Part shown: piece after piece, positions 30,016-54,458 of the stretch
Layout of the letters: each line of letters begins with the position of its first letter
Position numbering within the stretch: the first letter of the stretch is position 1
Assembly (NCBI GenBank): GCA_046563655.1
Contig: CM102286.1
Location: 1,612,001-1,676,000, forward strand
From: Yuukianura sp. NJ FZ-2021
Taxonomy: Eukaryota
Direction of reading: 5' to 3'
Length of the DNA: 64,000 nt
Translations under genes and position numbers: made by a program
Notes under the pieces: generated by a model
The model's input: the letters and a program-made list of their open reading frames with translations, nothing else
Database searches by the model: none
Told to the model about the DNA's origin: nothing

Positions 30016-31654
30016 TTATTTACTACCGAGAAGTACTTGCGCACAGGCAACAATGACTGCCACAAGAATTAAATTGACGACTGAGAGTGACGAAGATGAG
30101 TTGATGGAGTGCAGATGATGATGTACCGGAGAATCTTTGTTGTTTTCCGGTATTGAAATTTTGTCATGCGGTGAAATTTTTGGAGAATTTTGGAAATTTT
30201 GAATTTCGTTTTGAATTATGGTAGAGGTCAAGTCACTACCGAGTATTACTTTCAGTTGGTCTGGAGCAATCCATTCCAAAAGGGCGTCAGTCCATTCTGC
30301 TTGATCGTACCTAAAACAAATTCAAAATTTACTTATAAATTGGAAATTTTATTTTGCAATACTACACAATAAATACTAAACAAAAATTATTAAGCGAAAA
30401 AGTGTTGAACAATTTAAGTCTTCCGTACCCGTAAACATGCATAATTTGTGCAGAACGTTCAGCCAATACTGCTTTGAGTATTTTCATAATCACTGCATGA
30501 AATGAAACAAGAACAAGACCAAGTGAAACTTTTTCAATTTTGAAGTTGTTACTTTTCGTTTCAAAATGCTTTAGAAATTTTGAAGTATTTCCAAAGTATT
30601 TAAGTTCAAATCAGACCTTCAAATAGCCTTGGAGCTGTAAGGACATAAATTTTTTATCAAGTCTTGTTTTAGAACTTCAAAAATTGTGAATTAAGTTCAA
30701 AATTACTGTTAATGATGAAAACTGCTGCAGCAAGTTCTGGATAGTTGGCGTCCAGTGCTTCTGCAATCTCTTTAGTAAATTCTACACAATTTGAACAGCC
30801 TTGTTTGCGGAGGCTGACTCCATTCAAGTCCACAATGATGACGATGTCACTAGAGTTCATTGACCTGGCCTGGGCAAGCGCTGACTCCGCAAAGTGCCAA
30901 GCAAAACGACGTACGGATTCAGTTATACCAGTAACCACTATTTTTCGAACGTCAACTTTTCCTACTTTTACCAGGATTGCTGAAAATCCATATTTAGTTT
31001 AGATAATAATAACATATTATATTATAATTTTTTATAAAAGTAATAATTTTCAGGCTATTTTATGATTACTTGGACGAGATGATCTGTCTATGCCATAAGT
31101 AAAGATGTCACCGGGTTGAAAAGTCATTTTTTCGTTTAAGATTCCGTCGATTTTGTTCTGTGCTCGCCATTTCATGCTCTGCCATTTCCAAAATAATGTT
31201 TGTATTATATTTTATTTATTTATTTTGATATAAATAATTGTTATAATTATATTTTAATTTTATATAAATAATTAACAATTATGTTTTAATTTCAATTTCA
31301 TTACGTTTTGAATCATGTCTGCCGCCTTTTCAACATCCAGATTCGCAGTTGTGAGGAATGGCCGTAGGTATGAATCTTCTTTCATGTAACTATGCGTCAA
31401 AATGTTGACAACGAGTGGTCGCAGCTAAAAATTTTGAAAAAAAAATCAAACCGGTTTGCACAATTGACAATTTTGAGCAAAATTGGGAAAAAATCAATTT
31501 GACTTTAAGAATTTGTTGAGGCTTGTCACGAAGTGTTCAAAGTTTGTACCTTCTGCAACGCAAGTTGCTCTTCCTCGGTCGTGCATTCTGCAGTCAGATA
31601 CAAATGTAACTGAATTACAACGATTACTAAAATTAGCAACTTCATTCTCAACAT
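30016..31654 (-). CDS. CRAL-TRIO/SEC14-like protein A, with signal peptide and hydrophobic C-tail
   Basis: MLRMKLLILVIVVIQLHLYLTAEC; EDSYLRPFL..NLDVEKAADMI..MKWR..NKID; GIDRSSRP; IIVDLNGVS; DANYPE...VFIIN-APRLFE; LLEWIAPDQL. Confidence 0.88.
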
Positions 31655-32226
31655 ATAATTATTTGATACTTTAGTTGAGGTTAGGGTAACTGACTAAGAA
31701 TTTGGAAATTCTTAGGTAACAATTAAGAATTCGACTCCAGTTTACTCCATCGAGGTATAAAAAGCCAATGAAAACATATTCTTTGTTTCAGATAAAGAAA
31801 AGCATAAGTCTATATTCAGCTTCACCCTGAATTTATTGAGTTTGATTTGCATTTAAAAATAATTTAAGTATAGAAATTGCATAACCTGCTAAGTTCCGTG
31901 AATCAAAAACGTAAAAAAAAACAAGTTAAACTTGAAATAACTAATGACGTAACATTCTGGACGAGTCGAGTTGAAAATTCAACGCAACCAGAATTGTAAT
32001 TTTCTAACACTCCAACAGGTTTTGTCAAATGTAAAATAAAAATCTTTTAATTGTTCTAGGAGTAGAAGGCTTTATGCATTCCTGCTAACTAGAAAAGAAA
32101 ATTTTGAAATGAGACAAGTTTTGAAGTCAAATTTTTTTTACCCCCAACCAAACAACTTCTTAACTTCTAATCGTAGTAATAACGTCTAATGTTATTTAGT
32201 TTTTGTGTTACTAAATAACGCAGTCA

Positions 32227-34012
32227 CTAGATTGTTTGTGCAAACGCAATAATAATTGAAACTAAAGTGACTGAAAGTGCAGAAGATTTGCTGACTGAAT
32301 TAGGCTGCTGTTGATGCTTGTCCGGCACAAAATCTTTGTCTGCATCATCGGTTGAAAACTTGTCATGCGGTGAAATTTTTTGAGCATTTTCAAAATTTTC
32401 AACTTCATTTTGAATTGCAGCCGAGTTGAAATCTGTACCCAACAACAGTTTCAATTGATCTGGAGCTATCCATTTCAAAAGCGCTTGAGTCCATTCTGCC
32501 TGGTCATATCTAAGACAACTCAAAAACTTTTCGAATTTCAAAAAAAAATTGAAAAAAAAGTTGTCAATACGTACCCGTAGACGTGAATTTTTGCCGCTGA
32601 ACGACTAGCCAATACCGTTTTGACTACTTTCAAAAGAACTTGACAAAAAAAAACACAAAAATTTGAAAATTAAAATTTCAAAAATTTAGAAAAATCTTGA
32701 AACATATTACGGTACTACTACGATTGTAGTACATAAGCTTACCCTCGAAAACTCTTGGAACTATAAAATCAAAAAAAAAGTTCATTTTTTCAAAGTTTAA
32801 ATTAAATTTAGAATTCAAAATTTACTATTTATGATGAAGATGGCAGCGCCTAGTTCTGGATAGTTGGCATCAAAGGTTTCTCCAATTTCCTGTTCAAATT
32901 TGACACAGTTTGTGCAGCCTTGTTTGCGGACGCTGACTCCGTTTAAGTCTATGATGCCGATGACCTGACTACAGTTCATTGACCTCATTTGACTTAGCAT
33001 CGTCTCCACTGACTTCCAGATATAACGACGCACAATGTCCACTGTCCCAGTAAGAACAAGTCTTCTAATGTCGACTCTCCCCATTCTGCCATAAATGACT
33101 GAAAATCCATTCAAATCTTTTATATTACTTAAGAAAAAGGTTTAAAACTAAAACAATTTCAATTAAAATGTTTTCTATCAAATTTTTTTATTTCAACGTA
33201 TGGGTTCTGTACTAGAACTCTCAAAATTGTAACTTCCTCAGTCATGAAAAACTAAAATTTTCTGAAATATTTTTTGAAACATCACACTTTCTAACTTTCT
33301 AACGTATTACTTTTGGAAAAAGTTATGGTTAAAAAAAATTATGACGATTGAAATGGCGTTGGGCGAAGCCCCAGTAATGTCGCGTAGCATTCTCGTTAGT
33401 AGAGGTTTATATAAAAGTAATTTGATAATTTATTATAAACGTCTATCAAATTCTTTCGACTTTTTTGGCTTACCTGGGCGTGATGATCTGTCTACTGCCA
33501 CACTAAACGCGTTTCCAATTTCAAAGTTAATTTCTTCGTCTATGATTCCGTCAATTTTATTTTCTGTACGCCATTTCATACTCTATGAATTTAAAACTTA
33601 TGTTCATTTACGAATTTTTATCAATTTTCTAACTTAAGTTCTACAATCATTTATAATTGCGTTACATTACGAATCATGTCCGCTGCTTTTTCAATGTCCC
33701 AGTCGACTGCACGCAGAAACGGCAAAAGATATGAATCTTCTTTCATGTAACTCTGCGTCAAAATGTTGACAACAAGTGGGCGGAGCTACAAAAAATATAA
33801 CAGTATGTAAAGCTGCTACATTGATGAGCTACAATGAAAATTTCCAAATCATGAATATTTGAAACAGAATTTCAAAAGGTGCAGAATTAAAGACAAAAAC
33901 GTTAGATGGATTTTACCTGTTCTACTAGTGCAAATTCCTCGTTTTCATTTGCAGATTTAACACAATCCAGCATCAACTGGATTATAAAGATGTATTTGAT
34001 GAGCAACTTCAT
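32227..34012 (-). CDS. CRAL-TRIO/SEC14-like protein B
   Basis: Paralog of A with the same exon structure. Starts MKLLIKYIFIIQLMLDCVKS and ends SALSVTLVSIIIAFAQTI*. Confidence 0.88.
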
Positions 34013-34407
34013 CTTTAACCGATGTTTGGTAAGCTTGTGTCAGGTTTTTCTACGATGTGTTCGCAGTTATGTTAAACCCTACATAAATAGAACACTAATT
34101 AAAAATTTCCTCCCACAAATAAAATTTTGACTTTGGATTTATTTGTATCAAAACTCACGCGAATTATGATGACGCCATAGACAAAATTCCCAAGCTCCAC
34201 AAAAAGTAAGAATGTCGTCGAATCCGCTTTTCGCTTCTCATACAGATTCTCAGCATTAGTTCCTGTTTCACTCTCTAAACATTCCGGTCGTCCGTTCGAA
34301 AGCGTCTTTTGGGCATTTCGCTCCAACTGCTTTCAGTCGACCAGAACTTATTTTAACATTACATGAGGCGCGGTAGGTTTGAAAATTCGGGAGGCGTGGC
34401 CAGATAT

Positions 34408-34482
34408 CAGGGTTTGAAATAGATGGCATTTTTCATAAAAATTCGATATTATACCAAAAAGTATTATACGTATAATACCCTG
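34408..34482. mobile_element. 75-bp hAT-like remnant
   Basis: CAGGGT...ACCCTG ends flanked by the perfect 8-bp direct repeat CCAGATAT (34400-07, 34483-90). Confidence 0.65.
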
Positions 34483-34583
34483 CCAGATATCGCACATGAC
34501 GAATACTGTGTAAAAGTCACTCCTGTGTGACAGGTCGTTTCAGTTTTTCAAACGCTTGAACGCTTCAGACAAAAACTCTGAAG

Positions 34584-35437
34584 TAGGGGTCGGAATCCGG
34601 ATTTTGGCTCCGGATTCAAATCCGGATTTTTGACGGATTCGGATTATCCGAAATCCGGATTTTTAAATACTGAAATCCGGATTTCTACGGATTTCAAGAG
34701 CTATTCGAGGGCATGTGCGGTATCAAAAAAAAATAGCCAACCTCAGATTTACTCAATTTCAGGGTTCGTAAAATACCGTATTTTGTATTGTTGTGCCAAT
34801 GTTGTGCTAATGTTGTGCTAATGTTGTGCCAATGTTGTGCTAATGTTGTGCTAATGTTGAGCTAATGTTGTGCTAATGTTGTGCCAATGTTGTGCTAATG
34901 TTGTGCCAATGTTGTGCTAATGTTGTGCTAATGTTGTGCCAATGTTGTGCCAATGTTGTGCCAATGTTGTGCTAATGTTGTGCTAATGTTGTGCTAATGT
35001 TGTGCCAATGTTGTGCCAATGTTGTGCCAATGTTGTGCCAATGTTGTGATAATGTTGTGCCAATGTTGTGCCAATGTTGTGATAATGTTGTGCCAATGTT
35101 GTGATAATGTTGTGCCAATGTTGTGCCAATGTTGTGCTAATGTTGTGCCAATGTTGTTCTAATGTTGTGCCAATGTTGTGCTAATGTTGTGCCAATGCTT
35201 CATTTTTTTTTCAACACTAGTAATTTGATTCAAAAAATAAACACGCCGAATTTATCATCAAGGTTTTAGCTACGAGTGTTTCCAACCTGCATTTCTAACA
35301 GCTTAAACCAATTTTGAATTTCTTATGGGAGTTAACACAGAAATTGAAATCCGGATTTAAATCCGGATTTCAGGATTGAAATCCGTCAAAATCCGAAGTC
35401 CGGATTTTAAGAAACCCGCTCCGGATTCCGACCCCTC
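34584..35437. mobile_element. non-autonomous hAT-like element carrying a minisatellite
   Basis: TIRs AGGGGTCGGAATCCGGA / TCCGGATTCCGACCCCT, 8-bp TSD CTCTGAAG (34576-83, 35438-45), and clustered subterminal ATCCGGAT motifs. Confidence 0.85.
34789..35195. repeat. 11-bp minisatellite TGTTGTGC[C/T]AA x ~37
   Basis: Directly visible tandem array with no spacers. Confidence 0.97.
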
Positions 35438-35765
35438 CTCTGAAGTGACCGTAACTGGGAGAACTGATTGCTAGCTTCACACAATGTTCCCACGAAACCT
35501 TACAACACCCTAGCCACCATAAATCAGCAAATTCCAGCAATAAACTCAACTCACGATCAGAAGAATCCCAGCCATTTTGCACACAATGGACTTAATACAG
35601 AATTAAATTAAATTAGCAGCAATACTGAACTACAACAGCACATCACGATCCAGTGAACGAGGAAAACATTTATTAGTAATTGTTATAGTGTTTGTTATAA
35701 TATTTATATAAGTTTATTTATAATTATTTAAGCTTGGCTTGACAAATTTCTTTGCTATGTTTTTA

Positions 35766-37330
35766 TTATTTACTACCAAGAAATACTTGCGCACAGGCAA
35801 CAATGACTGCCACAAGAATTAAATTGACGACTGAAAGTGACGAAGAAGAGTTGATGAAATGTGGATGATGATGTACCGGAGAATCTTTGTTGTTTTCCGG
35901 AATTGAAATTTTGTCATGCGGTGAAATTTTTGGAGAATTTCGGAAATTTTGAATTTGGTTTTGAATTGTGGCAGACTTAAAGTCAGTACCGAACAGTATG
36001 TTTAGTTGGTCTGGAGCAATCCATTCCAACAGGGCGTCAATCCACTCTGCTTGGTCATAGCTAAAACAAATTCAACATTTACATACAAATTTGAAATTTT
36101 ATTTTTCAATACTAAACATTGTTATTATCTAAAAAAGTGTTGAACAATTTAGTCTTCCGTACCCGAAAACATGCGTAATTTGTGCAGAACGTTCAGCCAA
36201 TATTGCTTTGATTATTTTTAGAATAACTGTAAGAAAACCGAAGAAACCAAACTTTTTCAATTTTGATTTCAAAATAGTTTGAAAATTTTCAATTCAAATG
36301 CCTTAGTTCAAACCACGACAACTTACCTTCAAATAGTCTTGGAGCTGTAAGGACATAACTTTTTTATCAAGTCTTGTTTGAAATTTAGAACTTCAAAAAT
36401 TGTGAATTAAGTTCAAAATTACTGTTAATGATGAAAACTGCAGCAGCAAGTTCTGGATAGTTGGCGTCCAACGTTTCTGCAAGCTCTTTAGTAAATTCTA
36501 CACAAGTAGAGCAACCTTGTTTGCGGAGGTTGACTCCATTCATATCCAAAATGACCATGACATCACTACGGTTCGTTGATCTGGCTTGAACAAGCTGTGA
36601 CTCCGCCATGTGCCAAGTGAAACGACGTACGGATTCAGTTCTACCGCTAAGCACTATTTTTCGAACATCAAATTGTCCTATTCTTACGAGGGTTGCTGTA
36701 CATCCACATTTAGTTTAAATAATAATAATAATATATTATATCATAATTCTTTATACAACTAATAGTTTTTATAAAAATTTAAACAGGCTGTTTTAAGGTT
36801 ACTTGGACGAGAAGATCTGTCTATGCCATAGGTGAAGGTGTCACCAGGATGGAAAGTCATTTTTTCCTCTAAGATTCCGTCGATTTTGTTCTGTGCTCGC
36901 CATTTCATGGTCTGCCAAATAATGTTCGTTTTATATTTTAATTTTATATAAATAATGCATAATTATGTTTTAATTTCAATTTCTTTACGTTTTGAATCAT
37001 GTCTGCCGCCTTTTCAACATCCAAATTCGCAGTTCTTAGAAATGGCCTCAGGTAGGAATCTTCTTTCATGTAACTATGCGTCAAAATGTTGACAACTAGC
37101 GGACGGAGCTAAAAGTGTCAAAAAATTAATTGCGTTGGCAGATTTCGAGCAGAACTTTTAAAAAGAAATGATTGACTTTAAAAATTTACTGAGACTTTCT
37201 TAAGTCTGTTCGACGTTTTTACCTTCTGCAATGCAAGTTGCTCTTTGTCGGTTGTACCTTCTGCTGTTCTATACAACTGTAACTGAATTACGACTCCTAA
37301 TACTAAAATGAAGTCAATGAGCAACTTCAT
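35766..37330 (-). CDS. CRAL-TRIO/SEC14-like protein C (closest to A)
   Basis: Starts MKLLIDFILVLGVVIQLQLYRTAEG. Same motifs, and the C-tail is nearly identical to A. Confidence 0.88.
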
Positions 37331-37961
37331 TTTTATGTTCTAACTGTTTAATGCTTTACTTTTGCTTATGTTAGGTTAGGCTAACTGATTATAAGAATTT
37401 TAAACTTCTTCGGAAGAAAGTAAGATTTCGACTTAACTTTATCCTTGTGATTTCAATTCGTTATAAAACGGCATGGAAAAATGAAAAGCGCAACTCGTTT
37501 TATTTTTCACAAAGAAAACAGAATTCTTTAATCAAATTCACATCTACTTTGAGTTTAATTGGCATTAAAAAACTACCGAAATTGAACTCGCCTGCTGAGT
37601 TTGGAAAAACATAGCAAGTAAAAGAATATATTTACTTGTGCATATATAGATTATATCTATTAGATTTATCTATAGATTATAATATATAGTAGAATTGAAA
37701 ATTAATTAATTTTCTCACACTCCAGAATGCCTTGTCAAATGTGAAATAAAAACATTTCAATTGTTTTATGAGTCGAAGGCTTTTTTGTAGTGCGAAAACA
37801 ATAAGCGTGAATTCAGCAAGTTGGCAACAGTGGAGCTGAACCTTAAGTTTTTAAATTTTGGACAGGAAGCAAATGAAACTTTTTTTTACCTCAATCAGAA
37901 CTCCGTAAATTCTAGTAACTTCGAAAAAAAATTGTAATAGTTATGAAGTAACTATCTACAT

Positions 37962-39905
37962 TCAGGAAATTATTTGTGTAAACGCAATAATAATTGGAAC
38001 TAAATTAGCTATAAGTGTAGCAGATTTGCTAATGGAATGAGGCTGCTGTTGATACTGGTCCAGCAGTAAATCTTTGTCGGTATGAAGAATTGGGGACTTA
38101 TCAAGCGGTGAAATTTTTCGAGAATGTTGAAAGTTTTCAATTTCATTTTGAATTGCTGCCGAATTGAAGTCAGTACCCAACAACAATTGCAATTGATCCG
38201 GAGCTATCCATTTCAAAAGAACTGGAGTCCATTCTGCCTGATCATACCTTCAACAAAACAAAAACATTTTGAATTTCTTTAAAAAAATTGAAAAAAATTG
38301 TCATGTTACGTACCCGTAGACGTGTATCATTGCCGCTGAACGACTTGGCAGCGCCGCTTTTGCTACTTTCACAACGACTGCGAATGACACAAGAACCGAA
38401 ATGTTGAATTTCAAAAATTAAAGTGTCAAAGACTTCAAAACGGCAAAATTCTGAAGAATTTTGAAGTAATACCGCTTACCTTCGAAAAATCTTGGCGCTG
38501 TGAAATCAAAATCAAAAAGTTTAATGAATTAAGTTTTGGATAATTACATTTTATTTTATTCATCTTTAAAATTACTATTTATGACGATAAGAGCTTCAAC
38601 GAATCCTGGATAGTTGGCATCTAATGCGTCTCCAATTTCCCGCGAAAATTTGACACAGTTTAAGCACCCTTGTTTGCGGGCACTGACTCCGTTTAAGTCC
38701 ATGATGCCGATGACCTGAGTAGAGTTCATTGACCTCATTTGACTTAGCATCGTCTCCACTGACTTCCAGATGAAACGACGCACAATGTCCACTGTTCCAG
38801 TAAGAACAAGTCTTCTAATGTCAACTTTCCCCATTCTGCCATAAATGACTGAAAACCGTCCAAATAGTAATTATTAACCAGCGTAGCAACTTTATACATC
38901 CACACTGTCGGTCTGTCTGCCTGTCTGTCTGTGATTATCTCGGAAACGGCTCAACATTTCCGTCATCTGCCGGTGTTACACCTTTTGACCCGGGAATGTT
39001 TAATATTGAATATGATTCCGATGGGTTAATCTCTTCCGGGTCAAAGGTCGAGGTCAACTAGTTTCCTTCCGTTAACAGAAACTGACCTCTACAAAAGTTG
39101 CTCATATCATCGAGACAAATAACTTTTATGTACATGGCAAGTGACCTCCGTCCGGGTCAAAGGTCAATTTTTTTTATTTTACTGTTAGCAAGGGTTGTGC
39201 GTTAAAGTCCACCACGAGGTGTCCTCGAGACCAGCTGTTTGTTTGCAAAAGCAATGCAATCTTTCGCTACTTCCTTACACTCCGCTTTACAACCGGTTTA
39301 TGTTGTAATTAATGATAAAATGTTAAAAACTATTTGGAAAAACTAATTTTCGACTTTTTTGGCTTACCTGGGCGAGATGATCTGTCTACTGCCATACTAA
39401 CCACATCGCTAATTTGAAAGTTGACTTCTTCGTCCATGATTCCGTCAATTTTATTTTCTGTTCGCCATTTCATGGTCTACAAATTCACAAACTTTTTTCA
39501 TTTTCCCATTTTTATCAATTTTATAGCTTAAGTTTTGCAGTCATTTATAATTGCATTACGTTACGAATCATGTCCGCTGCTTTTTCAATGTCCCAGTCGA
39601 CTGCACGCAGAAATGGCAAAAGATATGAATCCTCTTCCATGTAACTCTGCGTCAAAATGTTGAAGATGAGTGGGCGGAGCTAAAAAATTTAATAGTCAAG
39701 CTGAAACAGTGATGAACTATTCAGCTATAAAGATTTCTAGAGCCTGGATTTTCAAAACACAGAATTTCAAAAAAATTCAGAATCAAGCACCAAAAGTTTT
39801 ATTGGATTTTACCTGTTCTAGTGCTAATTGCTCCTTCTCGTTTGAAGATTTAACAGAATTCAACACCAACTGGATTGCAAAGATGTATTTAATGAGTAAC
39901 TTCAT
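37962..39905 (-). CDS. CRAL-TRIO/SEC14-like protein D (closest to B)
   Basis: Starts MKLLIKYIFAIQLVLNSVKS, contains DANYPG, ends ATLIANLVPIIIAFTQIIS*. Confidence 0.86.
38878..39272. mobile_element. interspersed repeat resembling Helentron-associated (HINE/DINE-1-like) elements
   Basis: (CTGT)n microsatellite near one end, CCGGGTCAAAGGTC core, CTTTCGCTACTT near the other end. Related sequence at ~57088-57510 and fragments at ~45955, ~48010, ~54985. Confidence 0.55.
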
Positions 39906-40149
39906 GTTTAAACGATGTTTGCTTAAGTTATGTCTGGTTTTGCTGCAATGTTAGACTAAATCCAAAATAAATAGAATACTTCTCAACCATTTCCACGCGC
40001 AAATACATTTGCATCTAAACTGAAAAACACGTTAATTAGTTTCCTACGTTAGTTTTGTAAAAAAAATTCCAGCAGATAAGGAAAAGAAAACTAGTAAAAC
40101 CGGTACAAATTTTATTTTGATAGTTGAGAACAGAATCATCTTCATCAGT

Positions 40150-40330
40150 GACTTTTAGAGGTAGTCAAGTATTGCGAAAAACTTTGAAAAGGTTGTAAAA
40201 AGTGCAATCTTTGTGTCTAGATGTGAAGTAAAAGACGCAACATGGAGCACTCCGGTTCTGTTTGTGACGTTATTGTACATGCACAGACGTCTGCGATAGT
40301 CTGCATTCCAGTCAAAAAATCGATTCGGCT
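40150..40330 (-). pseudogene. degenerate relic of a glucoside xylosyltransferase last exon
   Basis: The minus strand reads GGAGTGCTCCAT (GVLH) and TACAACCTTTTCAAAGTTTTTCGCAATAC (YNLFKVFRN), matching 42317-42640 and the GXYLT last exons, with frameshifts and stops. Confidence 0.6.
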
Positions 40331-40335
40331 TGTTT

Positions 40336-41861: not shown

Positions 41862-42316
41862 AGGTTTGATTTGGTTGTGTTAGGTATTAGCTATGGTAGA
41901 GTCTATGTTAGGCCAACAACTTGAAAAAGATTCTCCTCACAATCAAATTTTAAAGTTAGTTTTATTGGGACCTAAAGTCACACGATTTAATTAGTTCTCG
42001 ATGTTGGTTGTGTTAAAAATCTCAAACATTCGTCAGATTTTTATGGAAAAAAAGAAAAAGACATACAAAAAAGTTGTAAAACTGGTAATTGCTAATAGTT
42101 GAAAATCAAGTCGTAACTATGACTTTCAAGCGTGTGACTGGAAATCCTTTGGTTCTCAAATTCTGACCAAAACATTCTGATAAAATTTTAATTACTAATT
42201 TATCAATCAAATCAAAAACTTTGTAGACTTGACTTTGTTTTTTCGCCTGTTTGGTTTTTGAATCCATTGAATTATCATTTTCAAAAAATTTGCAACATTT
42301 GTACGGAAAATTTTAA

Positions 42317-42640
42317 CTATTCTTGAGAAGTTTGTGTTTGATTCAAGAAAGGACGAAGAATGAGAGCTTCAAAGTGAGGCATATGCGCAGCATAATTTTT
42401 TGGTCTGCGCCGTGCCACGCGAAATGCATTTTTCAAGTTTTGCAAAACTATGTTGGGGTGGAGGTCGGCTGAAGTTAGTTGCGTATTTCGAAAAACCTTA
42501 AAAATGTTGTAAAAAGTGTTATCTTTGCATTTAAGTGTGAAGGATAGACCGTAACCATGGAGCACTCCTGATTTCATTTGTGACTTCATTGCACATGCGC
42601 CGATGCCTGTAATATGATCGTCCAAAGTTCCATGTACACT
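42317..42640 (-). pseudogene. isolated 3' fragment of a glucoside xylosyltransferase
   Basis: SGVLHGYGLSFT..FYNIFKVFRN..FEALILRPFLN is homologous to the last exon at 44362-44729. No upstream exons. Confidence 0.7.
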
Positions 42641-42751
42641 TCATTAAATGAAATTCCGTGCAACTAGGTTGAATAAATTACTTCTTGGTTAATAATTTCT
42701 ACAAAGCTGAATTACGGTGTGTTTTTATTTCAATTTTAATTAAAAACTTAA

Positions 42752-44126
42752 TTAGGCTGTGCGAAATTTGTTTTTCTTTAAATCCCGAAAATTAGTAAGA
42801 ACTGCAGCTTCAAAATTTGGTGAAAGAGAGCAATAATTTTTTGAATGGATTTTTCCTTTTTTAATTGCCGTTTTTAGATTTTTGAGTAGTCGGCTACGAT
42901 TAAATGTTGCAGAAAGGCGGGTATTTTTAAAAACTTTGAATATTTTAAAGTATGTGGAGTCGTTGTAGTAGCGAGTAAATGCTAAACCGCAACCATGAAG
43001 AACTGCCAGTCCATCCTTGATGTCGTCACAAACTTATTTCCTCTCGATGACAATTCTTTGGTCTAAAGTTCCACGCAGGGTCCAGTAAAACTATTTCGGT
43101 TGGATTTCTTGTCAAAAAAGTTTCTAAAATGTCCTAAACAAATTCAACACAAAAAGTGTTGCTAGATGCAGATGTGAAATTTATGGTTTACCTGATCGGG
43201 ATAAATAAATTTTGGACGAAGTTCTTTGGCAATTTTTAAAATTCTGGGCGTGAAGTGGCTAGATCTCATCCGAGTTAAATTCATAAGCAAAACTCCGGAA
43301 TTGAGTGGAACCCGGTCTTTCTTGGCTGTTGTTTCAGGATCTCCTCGGTGAATACTTTGGATAGAGTGATAGTGTGGTGCAATTGAAGCCAAAGAGTGCA
43401 TGTCATGTGACTCAAATTTGGCCCAGAGGTCAGCGACACTTGACACTTCCCAGAAAAATGAGGTCAGTATCCAGGTAGAGTACGGAGTCAAACGTCGGTA
43501 GAAGTTCAGGAAAAAAGAGTCTGGCGGATGAACAAGGTCGAAAAATAGAAGCCATCCACTCCGAACCTTTAAGTAAAAAAAATTCAAAATTCAAAAAGTA
43601 TGCTAAAAACTAAACTAATTTTGAATCCTATCATTTTTTTAATCTTGCCTTGAGGGTACTTGAGCGGAATAAAATTTAACTTCATACGGCTAAAGAATTT
43701 GGAATTCCACTGTTCACTATTCCCATAAATTGTTTCATTTAGCTTGTCAAAATTAGTTTTTTCATTTGACAAAACATTTATCTCGACACAATTTTTCGAA
43801 AAATTTGCTCCTACGCTGTTCGTCCTCGTATTGTCCAATGTTATTAGAATTGACTTGATGAGAACCAGAGTCTGGTCCAGTTGTCTTGCAAAACGTTTAC
43901 CGGCCCTTCCAGAACTTTTTGTCTCACTACACATAACCACTACCACTTTGATTTGGCACAAATTGAGGTCAATGACCTTTGAATCACTTTTACCGACTTC
44001 TGCTTCACTGTTTTGAATTAAACGTTTCCTGGTATCGACAAAACAAATCAGCAGGAAAACAACTACTATTTTACCGCTAAAATTTGACCACGAAGGAGCA
44101 AGAAACATTGTTGACAGCCTTAGCAA
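42752..44126 (-). pseudogene. glucoside xylosyltransferase (GT8, GXYLT/shams-like), two frameshifts
   Basis: Motifs QTLVLIKS, FRPCSSARLF, LYLDTD, LNSGVLLMNLTRMR, PDQD, WNF, VLHG. Frameshifts from a 7-bp duplication at 43435-43448 and near 43035. Confidence 0.8.
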
Positions 44127-44361
44127 AAATTGACAATGTTCTGGTATGAGTTATTCAGCATTTTTCTCCAAACCAAAGCTAACCATATGTGTTGCATTTT
44201 ATAAAAATTTAGAAGGTTATTGAACCAAAATATGTAAACAAGTTTATTATAATCATATCAATCAATTTTCAAGTAAAGTAGCAAATATATAAATTAGCAA
44301 ACGACAATTACTAGCTAGCTTTTCACCATTTTTCTTTGGTTAAAAATTTACTACAATATTT

Positions 44362-45697
44362 TTATTTTCCTATTTTTGCACGATTCAAAAACGGCGCCAG
44401 TACTGAGTGTTCAAATTTCGGAGCACGTGAACATCTATCTTTGGAAGTCTTTTGCGCATTTTGAATTGCGGTTTGCAATTTTTTCATCATTTGGGCACTA
44501 TTAAATTTTTTGGAAAGGTGAGCCATTTTGAAAACCTTAAAAATTTTATAAAACGTCTTGTCTGGACGGAGGGAGGTAAATTGGCCACCAAAACCATGCA
44601 GAACTCCAATTCCGTTTTGGATGTCACTACATACGTACTCTGGGTCACAAATTGGTCCAAAGTTCCAACAAGGATCCAGAAAGGCAATTTCTTTCGGATT
44701 TTCGTCCAAGTAAAATTCTAAAATGTCCTGCACATTTTGAAAATAGAGCACAGTAAGTACAATTTCCAAGTTTTTAAAATGTCATTTTCATACATACCTG
44801 ATCACCATACACCAATTTTGAGCGAAATTGTTCAGCGGTTGTAACAATTTTTTGAGTCCATCCACTGGATCTCATCCGAGTCAAGTTCATTAGCAAAATG
44901 CTTGAATTTATTTGAATTCGTCCTTTTGTTGCCATGGTTACTGGATCTTTCCTGAGGACACTTTGAATAGGATAACGTGGTGTAACTGATGCCAGCGAGT
45001 GGAGGTCATGTGACCTAAATTTTTCCCAGAGGTCACTCATACTCCGCAGAACTAAAGTGTCCGTGTCCAGGTAAATAACGGAGTCCATTGTTGGCAATGA
45101 TTCGGCTAGGAAGAGTCTGGCGGTGGCGAACGGTCGACAACTGTAGAACATCCACGAAGGAGTGCCTTGATTACAAAATTTTGAAACAAAAATAAATGAA
45201 AATCAAAATTCACCTAACGTTTAAAAAATTTTTTATATGCAGGCTTGCCTTCAGGATACTCGAAGGGAACAAAATCTAGTTTCATACGGTTTACAAATTT
45301 GGAATGCCACTGGTTACTGTTGCCGTAAATTTTTTCGTTTAGTTGGTCAAAAATACTTTTTTGATTTGACAATATTTATATGGAGACAATTGTTTGGAAA
45401 TTTCGTTTCTCTTTTGGAAATTTCGCTGTTGTCCAAAGTCATCAACATAGACTTGATGAGAACCAGGGTCTGGTCCAGTTGTCGCTTGAAACTTTTAGTA
45501 ATTCCTGTTTTTCTAGGACCACGGCATACTATCAGGGCTATCTTGATTTCACAACTGCTGAGGTCATTAACCTTGGAATTGTTTTTGCTGACTTCTGCTC
45601 CATTCCTTTGAGCTAAACATTGCTCTAAACAAACGAAACTAAGCAGTAGCAACACAGTGACTGCAGTTAAGTGTGAATTTGAACCAACCGCCAACAT
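44362..45697 (-). pseudogene. glucoside xylosyltransferase (GT8, GXYLT/shams-like), single frameshift in exon 1 (could be an assembly error)
   Basis: RPFATARLFL, IYLDTD, INSSILLMNLTRMR, YGDQDIL, PCWNF, VLHG. The exon-1 frame breaks near 45370 relative to the paralog. Confidence 0.7.
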
Positions 45698-46163
45698 TTT
45701 TTAGTAATTTTTACACAAAAAAAAACACAGAGACGTGTCAAAAAATCGGCGTTTGTTTTAGCTGAAATGGAAAGGAACAGAAATGCAATACGTTCCAATA
45801 TGTCCAGTAAAATCCAACACAAAAATTGTTGCTCCATGCAGATGTGAAATTAAATCACAATAATTTAGTCGTTTTTGGAATATTAGGCAGAATAACTAAT
45901 TTTATTGTTGCTTGGATGCAATTAATTGACTCGAAAAAAATTCTACCGATCTTAAGTAGCGAAAGTAGTTCGATACTTTATGTTTTTCGGCGTCTGTGTC
46001 TGTCTGTCTGCTGGTCAGCATAATTCTAGAACCGCTGGACTCATTTTCTGTCTAAATGAGGCACAGATTTTTATTCATCTCTTGGTATGTAGGAACAAAG
46101 TATAACAGTTTAACAAATTTCTCTAACCTCATAAAATATATTACAATATAATTATAATGTCAA

Positions 46164-47729
46164 TTAAAACAATTTTGGCAACATGAATGACAAAATTAAC
46201 ACCATGTTGGTATAAGGTTGAATCCGTCCGATGTTTGAAGTTGCTTCTGTGCGTTTCTGCCACAAAATTTTGCCATCGAAATCAGAAATTTTGGATGTTT
46301 CGACAATCTTTTTAGAAGCAGAATTTGATATGTGTTTTTGATGACGAAGTTTGTGGTGGTGTCCAAAAAATTTGTAAAGTTGTTCTGGAGATATCCATTC
46401 CAAAAGAGCTTCGGACCACTCCTGTTGGTCAAAACTACAAACAGTAAAAGTCATGCGTTAAGGTCAAAAGTCATCCGTAATGATAATTGTTTTTCAATGC
46501 TTACCCATAAACGTGCAATGTTTTCCGTGTACGAGGCGCCATATTTGCTTTGATTATCTTCAGAATTACTTTAAACCAAAAAAAAAAATAATAACACTTT
46601 AAACTTTCTCCAAGATAGTTTTTTCGTCAAAGAAAAATCTATTTACCTTCAAAAATACGCGGAGCTAAAAAACAAAAAAAAATATAAGTTTCGGAAGTTT
46701 CAAATAGAAAAAAAATAATTCTCATAATTTCTATAATTTCTTTATAAAACCTAATAAAGTCAAGAATTTTTCTTTTTACTGTTAATCATGAAGAATGCTG
46801 CACTAAAGTCTGGATAGTTGTCCTCAACTGCTTGTAATACGTCGGTGCACATCTTCAGGCATTCGGGACAAGCATGTCTACGGACATTAAATCCATTGAT
46901 GTCAACGATTCCGACCATTTGACTAAAATTTGAACTTATGGAGACTTCAAACAGTTTTTCCATCAATTTCAAAAACGCTCGTGAAACCGAATTGCGATTT
47001 CCAGTTATAATCATTTTTCTAGTGTCAAGTTCCGAACATCTTATGAGAATTGCTGTAACGAGAAAAAGATTGAGATTTTGACTTAAAAAAACTAATTTGT
47101 AGGTAGGAAGTCCAAGACACGTTTCAGGTAGTTTCAAAATTTTGAAATTCAAAATATGAAACAACGAATTCTACGTACTTGAGCGGCCTTCTCTATCTGT
47201 TCCCCATGTGTACTTCAAATCCTTATCCACCGGATTCATTTCGTTGACGATTCCATCGATATTATTTTCAGCACGCCATTTCAGATTCTACAAAAAGTGA
47301 AATTAATATTTTATAGAAATTTTGATATTTTAATAATTTGGTTTGTACTTTCAGAATCATTTCTGATGCCCGTTGTACATCAAATTCCGAGGCTCGCAAA
47401 AACCGAACCAGAAACGCGTCTTCAGTTTCATAACTTTTTGTCACATTTGATTCAACTGCGACTCGAAGCTTCAACAAATCCAAACAAAGTCGTCAAATAC
47501 ACAAAAAAAAAGTTTAATTTAGAAAAATACATTTTCAAACAAAATTCTTTAACGAAACAAAAAAAAAGCGAAAACTAATAAGTTTTTTCATACTTAAGAT
47601 TTTAGTTTTAGTTAGGGTACTCACTTGTTGTAGAAGAATTTGATTCTGTTCAGCATCCGTGAGTGATCCATGCACGCTGAAAATTGTGACAGCTAAGTCG
47701 ATTAGTAAAACAGTACTTACAAAATGCAT
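46164..47729 (-). CDS. CRAL-TRIO/SEC14-like protein F (second subfamily)
   Basis: Starts MHFVSTVLLIDLAVTIFSVHG; EDAFLVRFLRASEFDVQRA; HACPEC; EDNYPD; LLEWISPEQL; hydrophobic tail. Confidence 0.88.
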
Positions 47730-48332
47730 GCTCAGCCGAAATCGTAATTCAAAGAACAAAATTTTATTATAAAGAATTTAACTTTCAGCTAGTAGACAGA
47801 ATGATGCCGAAATAATTTGCATTTTTCCTTTTGTTTCTGTATCTACACAAAAATCAACGCTGCTTTATTAACTTTCCTGTTCTGTGAAATAAAAATTTAA
47901 TTAAAACTAGTTATGTGTGAGATAGATTTTATCCAATTTCATGTTTTAAAACTGTTCAGACTTCAAAAAATTTCAAATTGTATATAACTCAATATGTGCT
48001 AATTTATTATCAAAAGCTACTTATTGGTAATACATTGTCTGTCTGTCTGTTTTTCTGTTGTCTTTAAAAAAACGCCACTTCCTGCCACCAACTGCGTGGA
48101 GAAGATGGATCACTTACTAATTGTTGTGACCGTATAGCAGTCATTGTCTATTTTTTGCCAGCGATGTATTATATGGTACTAGGCCTCTTGTTGGTAAGGT
48201 AAATTCCTACAAATGTTATTCACATACACACGAGAACACATTTTGTGAGTTGATGTAGTTCTTGGTAGGTAGCAGCAAAGAACAGCAGTTTAACCAATTT
48301 CTCTAACTTAATTAAATATATTACAACATCAA

Positions 48333-49978
48333 TTAAAAGATTTGTGAAGTGAATGAAGAAATTAATACTACGCTGGTATAAGTTTGAATCCTTCCTATAT
48401 TTGTAGTTGCTTCTGTTTGGGTCTGCAACAAAATTTTGTCGTTGAAGTTAGAAAATTTTGATGTTTCGACAATCTTTTTAGAATTTGATATGTGCTTTTC
48501 ATGACGAAGTTTGTGGTGGTGTCCAAAAAATTTGTAAAGTTGATCTGGAGATATCCATTCCAAAAGAGCTTCAGACCACTCTTGTTGGTCAAAGCTACAA
48601 ACAGTCAAAGGTCATAAGTTAAGGTCAAAGGTCATCAATCAATAAAGATCAAAAGTCATAGCAAATTGTTTTTCGATGCTTACCCATAAACTTGTAGTAC
48701 TCTTCTTGTTTGAGGCGACATAGTTGCTTTGATTATCTTCAGAATTACTTCAAACGAAAAAGTAACTTTTCAAAATTTCACAAAAAAAAAAACCTTAAAA
48801 TGCTAAAAAATAGTCAATTTACCTTCAGATAGACGTGGAGCTAGAAAACCAAAAAAAAAAATAATAAGTTTGGAACAAGTCAAGGAATTGCACAAGCCAT
48901 TATAAGTTTGTGGATAAAACAGGAGGGATTCTCAAAAAAATTATAATTCTCATAATTTCTATAATTCATTTATAAATCCATAATAACTTCAAAGCTGTAT
49001 TTTACTGTTAATAAAGAAGAATGCTGCATAGAATTCTGGATAGTTGTCTTCAAGTGTTCGTAGTAATTCGAGGCCCAATTTCATGCAACCCGGACATGCA
49101 TGTTTACGCATACTGAATCCATTGAGGTCAAGGATTGCAATGCTTTGACTAAAATTTGAAATTCTCGATTCTTGAAACAGTTTTTCCATCAATTTCAAAA
49201 CCGATCGAGCAAGCAGCTCGGGATTTCCAGCCAGTATTAGTCTTCTAGTGTCAATTTCCGAACATCTTATGAGAATTACTACAAAGAGAAAAATTGAGAT
49301 TTTGACTTTTTTTTTTTTACAAAGAAACAGAGTAGTGTCAAAATTTTGATATACAAAATTCATCTCAGGGTTAGTGGATTGATAATTCAACTACTTTTAT
49401 ACCTGCTCGTCCAATTCTATCTGTTCCCCATGTGTACTTAAATTCCTTATCCATCGGACTCGTTTCATGTACAATTCCATCGATATTATTTTCAGCACGC
49501 CATTTCAAATTCTACAAAAAGTGAAATCCATATTTCATAAGGGTTTTGAAATAAATTAAATAATATACAAATACAATTAAATAAAGTATATTATTTTGGT
49601 CTGTACTTTTAGAACCATTTCTGATGCCCGTTGTACATCAAAATCCGAGGCTCGCAGAAACCGAATTAGAAAAGCATCTTCAGTTTCATAACTTTTTGTC
49701 ACATTTTTTTCAACTGCGAGTCGAAGCTTCAACAAATTAAAAAAAACAAATCAACCACTTCAAATACACATGAATTTGTTTTGAATTTTGAGCATTTTCA
49801 CAAAACCCTGAGAAAAAACTACGAAAACAAAAAATTTTTTTTCATACTTGCAAATTTTCCTTAGGTTACTCACTTGATTTAAAAGAGCTTCATTTTGAGT
49901 TTCACCTAGGTTTGATCCATGCACGCTGCAAGCGATTACAACTAAATCGATTACTAACACGGTAATGACACAACGCAT
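48333..49978 (-). CDS. CRAL-TRIO/SEC14-like protein G
   Basis: Starts MRCVITVLVIDLVVIACSVHG; HACPGC; EDNYPEF. Confidence 0.86.
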
Positions 49979-50804
49979 TTTAAGTAAAAATCTAAATCAA
50001 AATGGACAAAACCAAACTAAGCAATAAGTTACTTGCAGCGAAGTGACGCTTTGAGTCGAAAACCTTCAACTTAACCTTATAACACTGAGAAATTTTTGTT
50101 ATCTAGACAAGAATCGATTTGATGGTGTAAAACCCGTGTTTTTCTTTTGATATACTTTCAAGTTCATCATAGTCGAAAAAGATGTAGAAAAATTTAAACA
50201 AAGCCATTTTCTATACAGTTAAAGTACAAATTAGGCTAATAAAACTTAATTACCAATGCTATTTCATATGAAAAATGTTTCTTTTATGAAGTTTTTATGC
50301 CACAGGACATCCTGTTTTGTAAATTTTTTTGGAATTGTTGGAAAAGTAGTTCTCACATTCAAATGTGCTGGTTTTTGAGTTTCACATGAACTTCACATTA
50401 AAAACTCAACACAAAAGTGATCCCACTATTCATGGCCACATTTTGATGTGATTCTCCTAGTGCTTGGAGGTGTTAGGAGCGAAAATTTTAGTTGGTTTAA
50501 AATTTTGGAAAAATTCGATTTTCTCAAAACTGGATAGGTGATTATTTCTAGAAACAACTTTATCCAATATGCCACCTACAAATAATGCAATTGAATGCTC
50601 ATTAGGAGAAGCTGAATGCCGGGTAAAATCAAGGGCATGGCAGCCTATTAGGGTAGAAATGACTTGCTGTTCATTTTTTAATAAAGTCAAACTTGTTCTA
50701 AAAACTGTTTTAGTTGGATAAAAAATTACAGTTGAAAAATATAAGTCTTCAGACATACCAGCAAGTTTTTAAGTAAAAATTACAAACTACAGCATTTATA
50801 CAAC

Positions 50805-52228
50805 ATGTTTTCAGAGTCTACTACGAAACAGTTTTTTCAAATTTTAAGCATTGCTGAAAAGTGCATGTTGTCGGCGTTGCCGCGCAACGTCAACAATATG
50901 CGTAAATTGCAAAAGTTCAAGTACTTTGGTCTCTACTACTTGGGAATAACCTACTACACGATGGATATCATTTACCTAACATTCGCGGTCTCTCAGCTTT
51001 ATGAAGATCCAAAATGTACTGCCGAAGTATTCTTCAATGTTACGTTACATTGGGGCACAAGGTCGCTAGCTCTGCTGTTCCAGTACTACACCATTTGGTT
51101 CAGCACGGAAATTTTGGCATATCTGGAACAAGTTTTTGTCCTGCATCGAAAACTGCAAGGTATACATACACAGGAACAAGGTTGTTTTTAAATCAAAATT
51201 TCGCTTATTTTTTCTCAAAAGGTTGTTCCATAACTCCTTGTTTCTTGTTTTTTAATTTACGGCATTCGTACAAAGGGCCGCTATACCAACCTTTTACAGG
51301 AATTTCAAATTTTCAGAAAAAGAATTTTGAAGTTTCTTTTCGTTTCAGGAGAATTTGATGGAGAACATTTGCTGAAAGATTCGAATTCACAAGATACAAC
51401 TCGCCTAATGAAACTGGCTGCATTTGGAATTAAGTACTATGCATTCTTACCAGCAATCAATGTACTGACTAATGCTGCCAGCCCACAGTACTGGAGCGGA
51501 CAAATTTTTCCGCCAAACATTTACGGATCCATTCCATGGAAAATTGTGCTTTTTTGTATCGAATGGTACTTGACTCAAAGTGGCGCATTTATCGTCATCT
51601 TTGTTCTGACCATGACGATCCTCAACGTTTCATTCCTCAGATACTGGCTCTCAATACTCACGTACGATTCGATTCGAAAGGATATTTCGATCCAATTTTT
51701 TTAAAAAATTCATGACTAGCGAAAGTTTTTTTTAATGTTTCTTTTTTTTTTAAATTCAGCTCTAACATTGATCCAGGAGTGAATAATTCAGATGTTCCAC
51801 TCCAAAAATCTCTTGAAGTTTACCGCCAACTGACTTGCATCAACAGCACTCATGCAATGGCATTTAAAGCATTCCTTCGTTTTGCAATTCTCTATCTCCT
51901 TTACGTCACTGTCTTTTTAAATGTTGCGTTAATTCGTGTCAAAATTCCGCTTAATTTGACCCTGGCTATTGGATTTATAAATTTCGTTTGTTATTATTTT
52001 GCCTTTGTTTGGTTGCATAGCATCACTTATACAGTGGCCAAATCCCAAAAGTTCATCTCTTGCCTTGTGCAGACGCAGTCGTCTTTTTTCAAGAAAAGCG
52101 CTGTTTCCTGTCATCAACTGTCTGGAGAAAATGGATCACTTTTTAAATGTAGTGACCGAACAGCAGTTATTGTGTATTTTTCAATAGTGATGGATTATAC
52201 GGTCCAAGTTCTGCTTCTGGTACGATAA
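50805..52228 (+). CDS. gustatory-receptor-like 7TM chemoreceptor, copy 1
   Basis: Three exons with multiple TM helices. The C-terminus G.LF......IVYFSIVMDYTVQVLLL resembles TM7 of the arthropod GR/OR superfamily. The family assignment is by pattern only. Confidence 0.6.
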
Positions 52229-52481
52229 ATTTCGTCAAAAAATTTCGGCATAACGCCAATAATTAAATCACCGTAGAAAAGTCAGCAGTTACATGCATTT
52301 TTTTCGGATTTCCTGCTAAAAATTTCAACAAAATTTTAACTGAATAAAAGCTATAATAGAATAGGAAATGTTTCCAAATTGGACACAGATTGTGACCTGC
52401 TGCTTGTAGGTAGGAACAAGGCATAGCTGCTTAACAATTTTCTCTAACCTAGTAAGATATATTACAATATAATTATGTTAA

Positions 52482-54458
52482 TTAAAGCAAGTTTGACAAA
52501 ATAAATGACAAAATTAGCACTATGCTGGTATAAGTTTGGATCCGTCCGATGTTTCGAGCTGGTTCTGTTCGGGTCTGCCACATAATTTTGTCGCTGAAGT
52601 CAGAAAATTTTGATGTTTCGACCATCTTTTTAGAAGCAGAATTTGATATGTGCTTTTCATGACGAAGTTTGTGGTGGTGTCCAAAAAATTTGTAAAGTTG
52701 TTCTGGAGATATCCATTCCAAAAGAGCGTCCGACCACTCCTGTTGGTCAAAGCTACAAACACGCAGTGGAAGGTCATGCGTTAAGGTCTAAGGTCATTCG
52801 TAAAGATGAAGCGTCATATCATGAAATTGGTTTTCAATGCTTACCCATAAACATGCAATATTCTCCTTGTACGCGGCGCCGTATTTGCTTTGATTATTTT
52901 CAGAATTACTTTAAACCAAAAAAAATTTTTTTTTGTAAAGTTTCACCAACAAAAAGCTTTAAACTTTTCCCATAAAATATTCAATTTACCTTCATAAATA
53001 CGTGGAGCTGGAACACAAAAATATTGGTTTTGAAAGTATCCAATATAAATTTCACATTATAAATACTGAACTTATAGAAATTATGGAGTTTAATTTATAG
53101 AATTTATGAAGTTCCGCCTCTTAGCTCGCGCTATTGGTCGATTTCAAATCTGTGACGTCACTTTTCAAACTTTTCTCATTTATAAAACTTAAGTTTTATG
53201 AATTTTGTGTTTATGAATTTTGTAAATCTCAAAAGACGTCATTACTAGTCACAAAAACAAAGCTTTTAGGCTTATAAACACACAGTGTAATTTCCATAAC
53301 TGAAGAGTTTTGAAAGTGACGTCAGAGAATTGGAGTCAACCAATCGCCCGACTTGTTGAAATTGGCGGATGGGAACAAAAGAAGTAGAAAACCTTGAAAA
53401 AAATTATAATTCTCATAATTTCTGTAACTCAGTTATAAATTTCAGTTAAGCATTGCTTCTTTACTGTTAATAATGAAGACTGCTGCACTAAATTCTGGAT
53501 AGTTGTCTTCAACTATTTGTAGTAATTCTAGGCCCACTTTCATACACTCTGGACAAGTATGTTTACGGAGACTGAATCCATTGAGGTCAACGATCCCTAC
53601 CATTTGACTAAAATTGGAATTTCTGGCTTCTTCTAACACTTTTTCCATCAACTTTAAAAACGCTCGAGCAAGCAACTCGCGATTTCCAGTCAGAATCATT
53701 TTTCTAGTGTCAATTTCCGTAGATTTTATGAGAATTGCTGTAACGAGAAAAAATATGAGAATTTGAACAAATAAAAACAAATTTTCATGTATCCCGTTTT
53801 CCATAAAATGATTTAGGCAGTTCCAAATTTTGATATTCAAAATTCGAAACTACAAATATTTTACCTACTCGAGCGTCCAATTTTATCTTTTCCCCATGTG
53901 TGCTTCAAATCCTTATCCAACGGATTCGTTTCATTTACAATTCCATCAATATTATTTTCAGCACGCCATTTTAAATTCTACAAGGGAAAGAATGTTTCAT
54001 TAAGGTTTTAAACTAAATTAAATAATAATAATATATTATGTATTATCTAATGCATAATAATTTTAGCATATAGTATATTTGGTTTGTACTTTTAGAACCA
54101 TTTCTGCTGCCCGTTGTACATCAAAATCCGATGCTCGCAGAAATCGAAGTAGAAGCGCATCTTCAGTTTTATAACTTTTTGTTACATTTTTCTCAACTGC
54201 GAGCCGAAGCTTCATCAAATTAAAAAAAAACGTTAATAAATACACAAACAATGCTTTTGAATTTCGAAAAATTTTGTAGCTAAGCCCCCCTCAAAAAAAA
54301 AAGAAAAACTAAACAATTTTTTATATTTACAGATTTTACTTAAAGGGACTCACTTGTTGTAGAAGAATTTGATTCTTTTCTTCATTAGTGCCCGATTCAC
54401 TCACGCTGGAAACTGTAACAACTAAATTGAGCAATAAAACAATAAGTAAGAAATCCAT
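52482..54458 (-). CDS. CRAL-TRIO/SEC14-like protein H
   Basis: Starts MDFLLIVLLLNLVVTVSSVS; HTCPEC; EDNYPEF; ends YTSIVLILSFILSNLL*. Confidence 0.86.

Follow-up and report, generated by a model that had tools for sequence, protein, structure and literature searches.

Sec14/CRAL-TRIO proteins are textbook cytosolic lipid-transfer proteins, and the question raised here is where the products of a tandem array of such genes would act when they carry both a signal-like N-terminus and a hydrophobic C-terminal tail. The array lies in a stretch of 64,000 nucleotides from the springtail Yuukianura sp. NJ FZ-2021 (assembly GCA_046563655.1, contig CM102286.1, positions 1,612,001 to 1,676,000), referred to as the window, and all coordinates given below are those of the window. 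A first-pass annotation made from the letters had proposed that eight CRAL-TRIO genes at 30016-54458 were converted into secreted extracellular lipid carriers held by a glycosylphosphatidylinositol (GPI) anchor. With moderate confidence we favour a related reading, namely that the eight genes represent a secretory springtail Sec14-like clade whose glycosylated lipid-binding domain would be GPI-tethered on the outer face of the plasma membrane. Judged from their sequences, the eight proteins probably handle fats or terpenes outside cells.

The largest reported springtail gene-family expansion has so far been read as cytosolic. If its members were secreted, glycosylated and disulfide-bearing carriers, springtail Sec14-like biology would need rethinking, and likely roles would move away from phosphoinositide signalling and towards carrying lipids, sterols or terpenes outside cells, with cuticle building, detoxification, digestion and chemical communication among them. 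In that case the tethered clade would provide the first example of an animal CRAL-TRIO domain displayed on the outer side of the membrane, and its eight genes form a compact set for direct tests.

Eight tandem CRAL-TRIO genes

The starting clue was that one set of protein pieces recurs eight times among the minus-strand stop-to-stop open reading frames (ORFs) between 30016 and 54458. A model of the first gene (G1) was assembled by eye from the sequence, and a splice-aware protein-to-DNA aligner written for this analysis, which was guided by the G1 model and allowed GT-AG introns only, then reproduced G1 and placed seven more genes (G2 to G8). Each model was then lengthened as far as the first ATG at one end and the stop codon at the other. 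The DNA is AT-rich (GC 0.31-0.43) with short introns, and eight complete CRAL-TRIO genes were found on the minus strand, each with seven exons, a frame open from ATG to stop and a product of 316 to 328 amino acids (aa). Exons 2 to 6 measure 120, 109, 273, 18 and 64 nt in every gene. Exactly eight copies are present in the window, as none of the 236 tblastn high-scoring segment pairs obtained with the eight proteins fell outside the gene spans. Exon 7 is a single unspliced frame that runs from a conserved Asp-Gln-x-Glu-Trp motif at the end of the domain through a linker and the tail to the stop codon. The 18-nt micro-exon present in all eight genes (30634-30617 in G1), which encodes Pro-Arg-x-Phe/Tyr/Ser-Glu after Ile-Asn, could easily be overlooked by gene predictors.

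The genes were grouped into three subfamilies by pairwise amino acid identity. Subfamily A (83% identity) comprises G1 (31654-30016, 327 aa; exons 31654-31550, 31424-31305, 31178-31070, 30979-30707, 30634-30617, 30492-30429 and 30310-30016, as placed by the aligner) and G3 (37330-35766, 328 aa). Subfamily B (72-80%) comprises G2 (34012-32227, 320 aa), G4 (39905-37962, 320 aa) and G5 (41861-40336, 323 aa), and subfamily C (71-75%) comprises G6 (47729-46164, 319 aa), G7 (49978-48333, 316 aa) and G8 (54458-52482, 319 aa). Identity across subfamilies was 52-58% between A and B and 32-39% between C and either of the others.

Whole-gene ratios of nonsynonymous to synonymous substitution rates (dN/dS, Nei-Gojobori method) within subfamilies were 0.29-0.53, and the eight-gene clade is under purifying selection. 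The signal and tail regions diverge faster, with ratios of up to 1.2-1.7 that are based on very few sites, and keep their hydrophobicity; fast-changing yet hydrophobic sequence is the usual behaviour of signal peptides and GPI signals. A pseudogene array was rejected as an explanation, all frames being intact and dN/dS being below 1.

It might also be supposed that the copies are decaying, or that the models splice together exons that stay separate in vivo, so that exon 1 or the tail would be absent from the real product. The restriction of the aligner to GT-AG introns and its guidance by a single model leave room for such an error, and a search of sequencing runs for this DNA listed five runs from two studies, none of them RNA. 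We nevertheless consider it very improbable: the open frames and identical internal exon lengths are common to all eight genes, dN/dS is below 1, the tail shares its exon with the conserved end of the domain, and the junction of exons 1 and 2 agrees with uninterrupted ORFs of the relatives described below, in which the signal segment runs without a break into the residues that flank that junction in the window genes.

Features shared with the springtail Sec14-like family

The CRAL-TRIO assignment is based on Pfam scans of single exons. The exon-4 ORF of G1 matched CRAL_TRIO (PF00650) with 36.3 bits against a cutoff of 22.6, and that of G6 scored 20.7 bits, slightly under the cutoff. Every gene encodes an N-x-S/T sequon and a Cys-x-x-Cys (CxxC) pair separated by a spacing of exactly 20 residues: NSS (30857-30849) and CSNC (30797-30786) in G1, NCS (32976-32968) and CTNC (32916-32905) in G2, NRS (36573-36565) and CSTC (36513-36502) in G3, NST (38726-38718) and CLNC (38666-38655) in G4, NCS (41106-41098) and CSNC (41046-41035) in G5, NFS (46930-46922) and CPEC (46870-46859) in G6, NFS (49156-49148) and CPGC (49096-49085) in G7, and NFS (53615-53607) and CPEC (53555-53544) in G8. 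The CxxC stands at the start of a helix, 13-16 residues ahead of a Y-P motif, and of the 18 exon-4 columns that are invariant in the eight genes three are Asn41, Cys61 and Cys64. Because these features are kept between subfamilies of only 32-39% identity, their sharing exceeds what is expected by chance.

In all eight genes the product of exon 1 opens with Met and at most two charged residues, continues as a hydrophobic run and leads into a region of small residues, with small-residue sites at positions -3 and -1 after the hydrophobic run. The maximal ten-residue hydropathy at the N-terminus was 3.40, 2.13, 2.91, 1.76, 1.73, 2.64, 3.17 and 3.26 for G1 to G8, respectively; a hydrophobic segment was recognised by eye in all eight proteins and exceeded the threshold of 2.2, which was also applied to relatives, in five of them. 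The first-pass annotation had reported a separate first exon with a signal-like segment, a sequon at one position and a CxxC in all eight genes, and these observations were confirmed, with a Met followed by a hydrophobic stretch in each first exon, the same eight sequon triplets at constant spacing and the cysteine pair in every copy.

To place the genes in a wider family, representative proteins (1.84 billion) were searched with an exon-4 profile, which gave 231 matches at E ≤ 1e-3, of which 13 reached E ≤ 1e-10 and none reached E ≤ 1e-30. The protein search with exon 4 of G1 alone, made at longer lengths, gave no matches, and an alignment of 20 family members used as query gave six matches at E ≤ 1e-10. 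The two best matches (P0001 and P0002, on contigs of 2.7-4.3 kb) are short ORFs that enter an intron at the exon-4 boundary of the window genes, and because they do so at the same boundary they derive from the genomic DNA of relatives. Many other relatives are unbroken ORFs of 260-290 aa on contigs of about 1 kb; given the six introns of the window genes, such short contigs with uninterrupted full-length ORFs are probably transcripts. Nearly all full-length matches (258-292 aa) open with a classical signal-like segment with Ala, Gly or Ser at -1 and -3, carry N-[VI]-T 20 residues ahead of H-[AG]-C-x-x-C and end a few residues past YGGT, without a tail.

The association of the N-terminus with the cysteine pair was counted in the 150 best of the 231 matches, of which 53 were assessed after the exclusion of 97 that were too short or lacked a complete N-terminus. 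A hydrophobic N-terminus was found in 34 of 41 proteins with the family CxxC and in 4 of the 12 that lack the pair (Fisher p=0.0019), in a table that misplaces some rows, as P0036 and P0145 do carry the CxxC and the N-termini of P0051, P0060, P0100 and P0134 are hydrophobic but outside the threshold or the stretch of residues scored. When 50 relatives were aligned (mean column identity 31%), the two cysteines were the sole invariant columns. Exactly two cysteines follow residue 25 in 30 of the 50, and the sequon occupies the aligned column in 30 and lies within ten columns of it in 7 more.

Thirty clusters were looked up, six of which bear the names of springtails (Orchesella cincta, Orchesella dallaii and Folsomia candida), with the annotation 'SEC14-like protein' or 'SEC14 cytosolic factor'; one looked-up match without the CxxC came from a sponge, and the others, P0001 and P0002 apart, lie on contigs of about 0.9-1.7 kb. 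The Sec14-like family is given in parts of the F. candida genome paper as the largest expanded family, with 154 genes (PMC5490193), and is counted in parts of the O. cincta genome paper among the largest lineage-specific families (PMC4987106). From its sequences, the CxxC family is evidently this Sec14-like expansion reported for springtail genomes. In the portions of the two papers that concern it, the expansion is discussed in terms of cytosolic Sec14 function and a signal peptide is not mentioned (PMC5490193, PMC4987106). A full-text literature search found no paper tying Collembola Sec14-like proteins to a signal peptide and nothing on secreted animal CRAL-TRIO proteins, predictions for apicomplexan Sec14-like candidates, described below, being the one related item.

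For the phylogenetic analysis a maximum likelihood tree of 82 rows was inferred by a quick search in IQ-TREE and midpoint-rooted for drawing only. The eight window genes were monophyletic, with a support of 99 in the Shimodaira-Hasegawa-like approximate likelihood ratio test (SH-aLRT), and the matches without the CxxC formed a separate clade (97), apart from the 64 other rows of the CxxC family. The eight genes are one tandemly duplicated clade of three subfamilies inside a springtail-specific Sec14-like (CRAL-TRIO) expansion. The proposal that these eight genes were themselves converted to a secreted form does not hold, as the signal-like N-terminus, the sequon and the CxxC are common to a large springtail family whose F. 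candida, O. cincta and O. dallaii members share them, together with the domain, with the window genes.

The position of these features in the fold was examined in an AlphaFold2 model of one relative, P0003, computed from the alignment of 50 sequences (mean predicted local distance difference test score 94.1, predicted template modelling score 0.87, with low confidence in residues 1-20 only). The model has the Sec14 fold, with a helical N-terminal region and an alpha/beta lipid pocket. The first cysteine of P0003 lies in the loop directly before helix 181-195 and the second in the first turn of that helix, a geometry that in the model would be compatible with a local disulfide, and its sequon occupies the loop that connects helix 130-155 with strand 162-167. 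In SEC14L4, the one SEC14L sequence aligned, Trp and Ala stand where the springtail family has its two cysteines.

Could the proteins instead be cytosolic and tail-anchored, the C-terminal tail being inserted post-translationally and the N-terminal stretch not being a signal peptide? Elsewhere CRAL-TRIO domains occur in the cytosol, the N-terminal hydrophobicity of G2, G4 and G5 is weak, and MOSPD2, in the parts of its description that treat its architecture (PMC7610837), likewise has a CRAL-TRIO domain held at the membrane by a C-terminal hydrophobic segment. Unlike the window proteins, however, MOSPD2 faces the cytosol at contact sites of the endoplasmic reticulum (ER) and carries an MSP domain but no signal peptide. 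The relatives have classical signal peptides with Ala, Gly or Ser at -1 and -3, the N-termini of five of the eight window proteins are strongly hydrophobic, and the CxxC accompanies a hydrophobic N-terminus, which most matches without the CxxC lack. The tails of G6 to G8, described in the following section, are moreover too short for a tail anchor. With hydrophobic segments at the N-terminus and no window resembling a transmembrane (TM) helix in G6 and G7, the window proteins fall outside the tail-anchored class, and we regard a cytosolic location as improbable. At the level of the family, in silico evidence gives good support for entry into the secretory pathway, and the window proteins themselves are supported in silico as resembling secretory-pathway proteins with a C-terminal membrane-attachment signal.

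The C-terminal extension and the predicted topology

The family usually ends in QLP..YGGT, and the window clade adds about 70 residues beyond this C-terminus. The terminal motif itself is degenerate in the window genes, and the earlier statement that LP..YGG is lost holds for the Pro and the Tyr-Gly, which are replaced, but not for DQL and one Gly, which are still there. The extension consists of a polar stalk rich in Ser, Gln, His and Asn, then small residues, and then a terminal hydrophobic stretch of 12-21 residues; the tail is located at 30093-30019 (G1), 32304-32230 (G2), 35843-35769 (G3), 38039-37965 (G4), 40413-40339 (G5), 46241-46167 (G6, a short tail), 48410-48336 (G7, the least hydrophobic of the eight) and 52559-52485 (G8). 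The hydrophobic run measures 12-14 residues in subfamilies B and C and about 18-21 in A. A polar linker and hydrophobic tail without a cytosolic extension had already been noted in the first-pass annotation and were recovered in all eight proteins, with at most two residues following the hydrophobic end. By a rule-based inspection, all eight have, at a distance of 16-27 residues from the C-terminus, residues of the Ser/Asn/Gly/Ala type that are followed two positions later by a small residue and then by a spacer.

This pattern, which we infer from sequence, would fit a GPI-attachment signal better than a TM helix in subfamilies B and C, and either in subfamily A. The competing arrangement has the same topology, with the C-terminal stretch serving as a TM anchor (type I, with almost no cytosolic tail) or as a means of retention in the ER, the Golgi or secretory granules, where the protein would load lipids onto cargo. 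Windows of 19 residues with a Kyte-Doolittle mean of at least 1.6 at the C-termini of G1 to G5 and G8 speak for it, as do the tails of G1 and G3, in which 21 uncharged hydrophobic residues are followed by Ser-Lys. Against it, G6 and G7 have a hydrophobic run of 12-13 residues and no TM-like 19-residue window at the C-terminus, the run reaches the very last residue in G2 and G4 to G8, and small residues stand at a GPI-like distance from the end in all eight proteins. We consider a TM anchor or retention signal possible but unlikely, and GPI anchoring plausible, as the best but unproven reading of the tail.

The distribution of the tail was followed by further searches. A profile of the tail exon gave no matches in the protein search; among metagenome contigs there were 132 pattern matches to the tail-exon profile and 86 to the exon-4 profile, none of which was confirmed by tblastn. 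Among the 77 matches of at least 200 aa, a C-terminal hydrophobicity of at least 2.0 was found in five (P0005, P0072, P0110, P0131 and P0145), and none of these five has the stalk-plus-tail layout. As far as the compared sequences indicate, only the linker and hydrophobic tail are special to the window clade within the family, and because the eight genes form one clade the tail probably arose once. One of the five, P0131, is annotated as 'SEC14-like protein 5' of Orchesella cincta, a CxxC-family match with a strongly hydrophobic C-terminus of 30 residues; it may be a second tailed lineage or an annotation running into an intron.

Under the GPI-tethered reading, members of the springtail expansion would enter the secretory pathway via a cleavable N-terminal signal peptide, would receive an N-glycan in the loop preceding a core beta-strand, and would probably form a disulfide in the oxidising lumen between the two cysteines at the start of a helix in the wall of the pocket. 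In the window clade the added tail would act as a GPI-attachment signal, leaving a mature protein in which the glycosylated lipid-binding domain sits on a flexible stalk on the outer face of the plasma membrane, where it may take up or pass on hydrophobic small molecules, lipids or isoprenoids.

Several points weigh against this reading and temper our confidence in it. The signal and anchor calls were made with simple hydropathy and small-residue rules of our own. The N-terminal maxima of G2, G4 and G5 lie under 2.2, their hydrophobic cores being broken by Lys and Gln. The tail of G7 is weakly hydrophobic (1.57), and those of G1 and G3 could equally well be TM helices. The tail-exon profile searches of proteins and metagenome contigs found no relative with the same tail. 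The conserved Asn with its Ser or Thr and the CxxC could serve structural or metal-binding roles instead. The protein modelled was the relative P0003, which is 31-36% identical to G1, G2 and G6.

If the GPI-tethered reading is right, the closest counterparts would be the plant GPI-anchored lipid transfer proteins (LTPGs), which likewise combine a signal peptide, a small lipid-binding domain and a GPI anchor that holds them to the outside of the plasma membrane. Their fold is unrelated, plant lipid transfer proteins being plant-specific, helical, eight-cysteine proteins. A role in wax export is attributed to LTPGs. In parts of three papers they are linked to cuticular lipid deposition in plants (PMC7084707, PMC5052319, PMC5874595). 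Sec14-like predictions in Apicomplexa that combine CRAL-TRIO with signal peptide or TM labels, according to a figure legend (PMC10543664), are uncharacterised protist predictions with no CxxC or sequon known to be shared and do not form a large secreted family.

Candidate ligands and neighbouring genes

The nearest structures to the P0003 model in a Foldseek search were those of human supernatant protein factor (SPF), SEC14L2 (1o6u, 1olm, 4omj), with a query TM-score (TMq) of 0.84-0.85 and a root mean square deviation (rmsd) of 1.7-1.8 Å. With SEC14L3 and SEC14L4 included, TMq was 0.84-0.85, rmsd 1.7-2.3 Å and identity 27%. Yeast Sec14 and Sfh1 came next, and alpha-TTP and CRALBP were farther. 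A sequence search of the PDB with the exon-4 profile gave one weak match, SEC14L4 (E=0.0018). SPF is cytosolic, has a C-terminal GOLD domain and is not known to have a signal peptide or a tail. The pocket of the window proteins would be most like that of SEC14L2, a binder of squalene, oxidosqualene and tocopherol derivatives, to judge from the fold of the relative only. Because the SPF entries among the matches include complexes with 2,3-oxidosqualene and tocopherylquinone, the model makes an isoprenoid ligand plausible for the window proteins.

A terpene ligand would also fit because a microbial-type terpene synthase gene lies 6 kb from the array. This plus-strand ORF (60387-61421), uninterrupted over 344 codons, matched Terpene_syn_C_2 (E=1.9e-08, 34.8 bits against a cutoff of 23.7) and is separated from G8 by about 6 kb. 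A 2026 paper described springtail genes of this microbial type (PMC13638087), and searching it by term gave no mention of Sec14 or of neighbouring genes. Other plus-strand features upstream of the array are a CD36-family exon (3781-4422, E=6.7e-53) and a GMC oxidoreductase exon (14148-14633). The neighbours are suggestive of lipid or terpene biology but do not amount to evidence of linkage.

More tentatively still, the findings may be joined into a wider proposal, which we regard as unlikely in its entirety: that the Sec14/CRAL-TRIO fold became a major extracellular lipid-carrier system in springtails, with well over a hundred secreted paralogues, of which the window clade would be the GPI-tethered arm, either moving the unusual epicuticular lipids and terpenes of these animals from epidermal cells to the cuticle in the manner of LTPGs or presenting hydrophobic chemicals to membrane receptors.

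A chemosensory function, in which the proteins would carry odorants or tastants like insect odorant-binding or NPC2 proteins, is compatible with the GPI-tethered reading and draws on the genomic context. Three tandem multi-pass membrane genes are interleaved with the array on the plus strand (50745-52228 between G7 and G8; 55414-56789 and 57788-59403 after G8), and the one ORF tested, in the first copy (51716-52228), had clusters of 7tm_7 chemoreceptors as its nearest named clusters in the ESM-Atlas, at 0.87, a weak lead below the reliability line; the CD36-family exon would also suit such a role. The ORFs of these membrane genes, however, had no Pfam match even at E ≤ 5, and a tethered carrier differs from soluble odorant-binding proteins. 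The latter are small helical proteins with six cysteines, whereas the window proteins have a CRAL-TRIO domain with two conserved cysteines and fall outside that class, so that any likeness could only be functional. To our knowledge the soluble chemosensory carriers of springtails are themselves poorly known, and we regard a chemosensory role for the eight proteins as doubtful.

The remaining features lie within or beside the array. Two tandem glycosyltransferase family 8 genes (43162-45700, minus strand) stand between G5 and G6, with the Pfam match to Glyco_transf_8 on 44774-45202, and their first exons resemble type II signal anchors. C2H2 zinc-finger ORFs occur on the plus strand in the flanks (28378-29880 and 63097-63870), the first of which ends 136 bp from the stop codon of G1 on the opposite strand. 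The spacer between G2 and G3 contains a minisatellite (34789-35197) with 37 copies of an 11-bp unit (91% matches).

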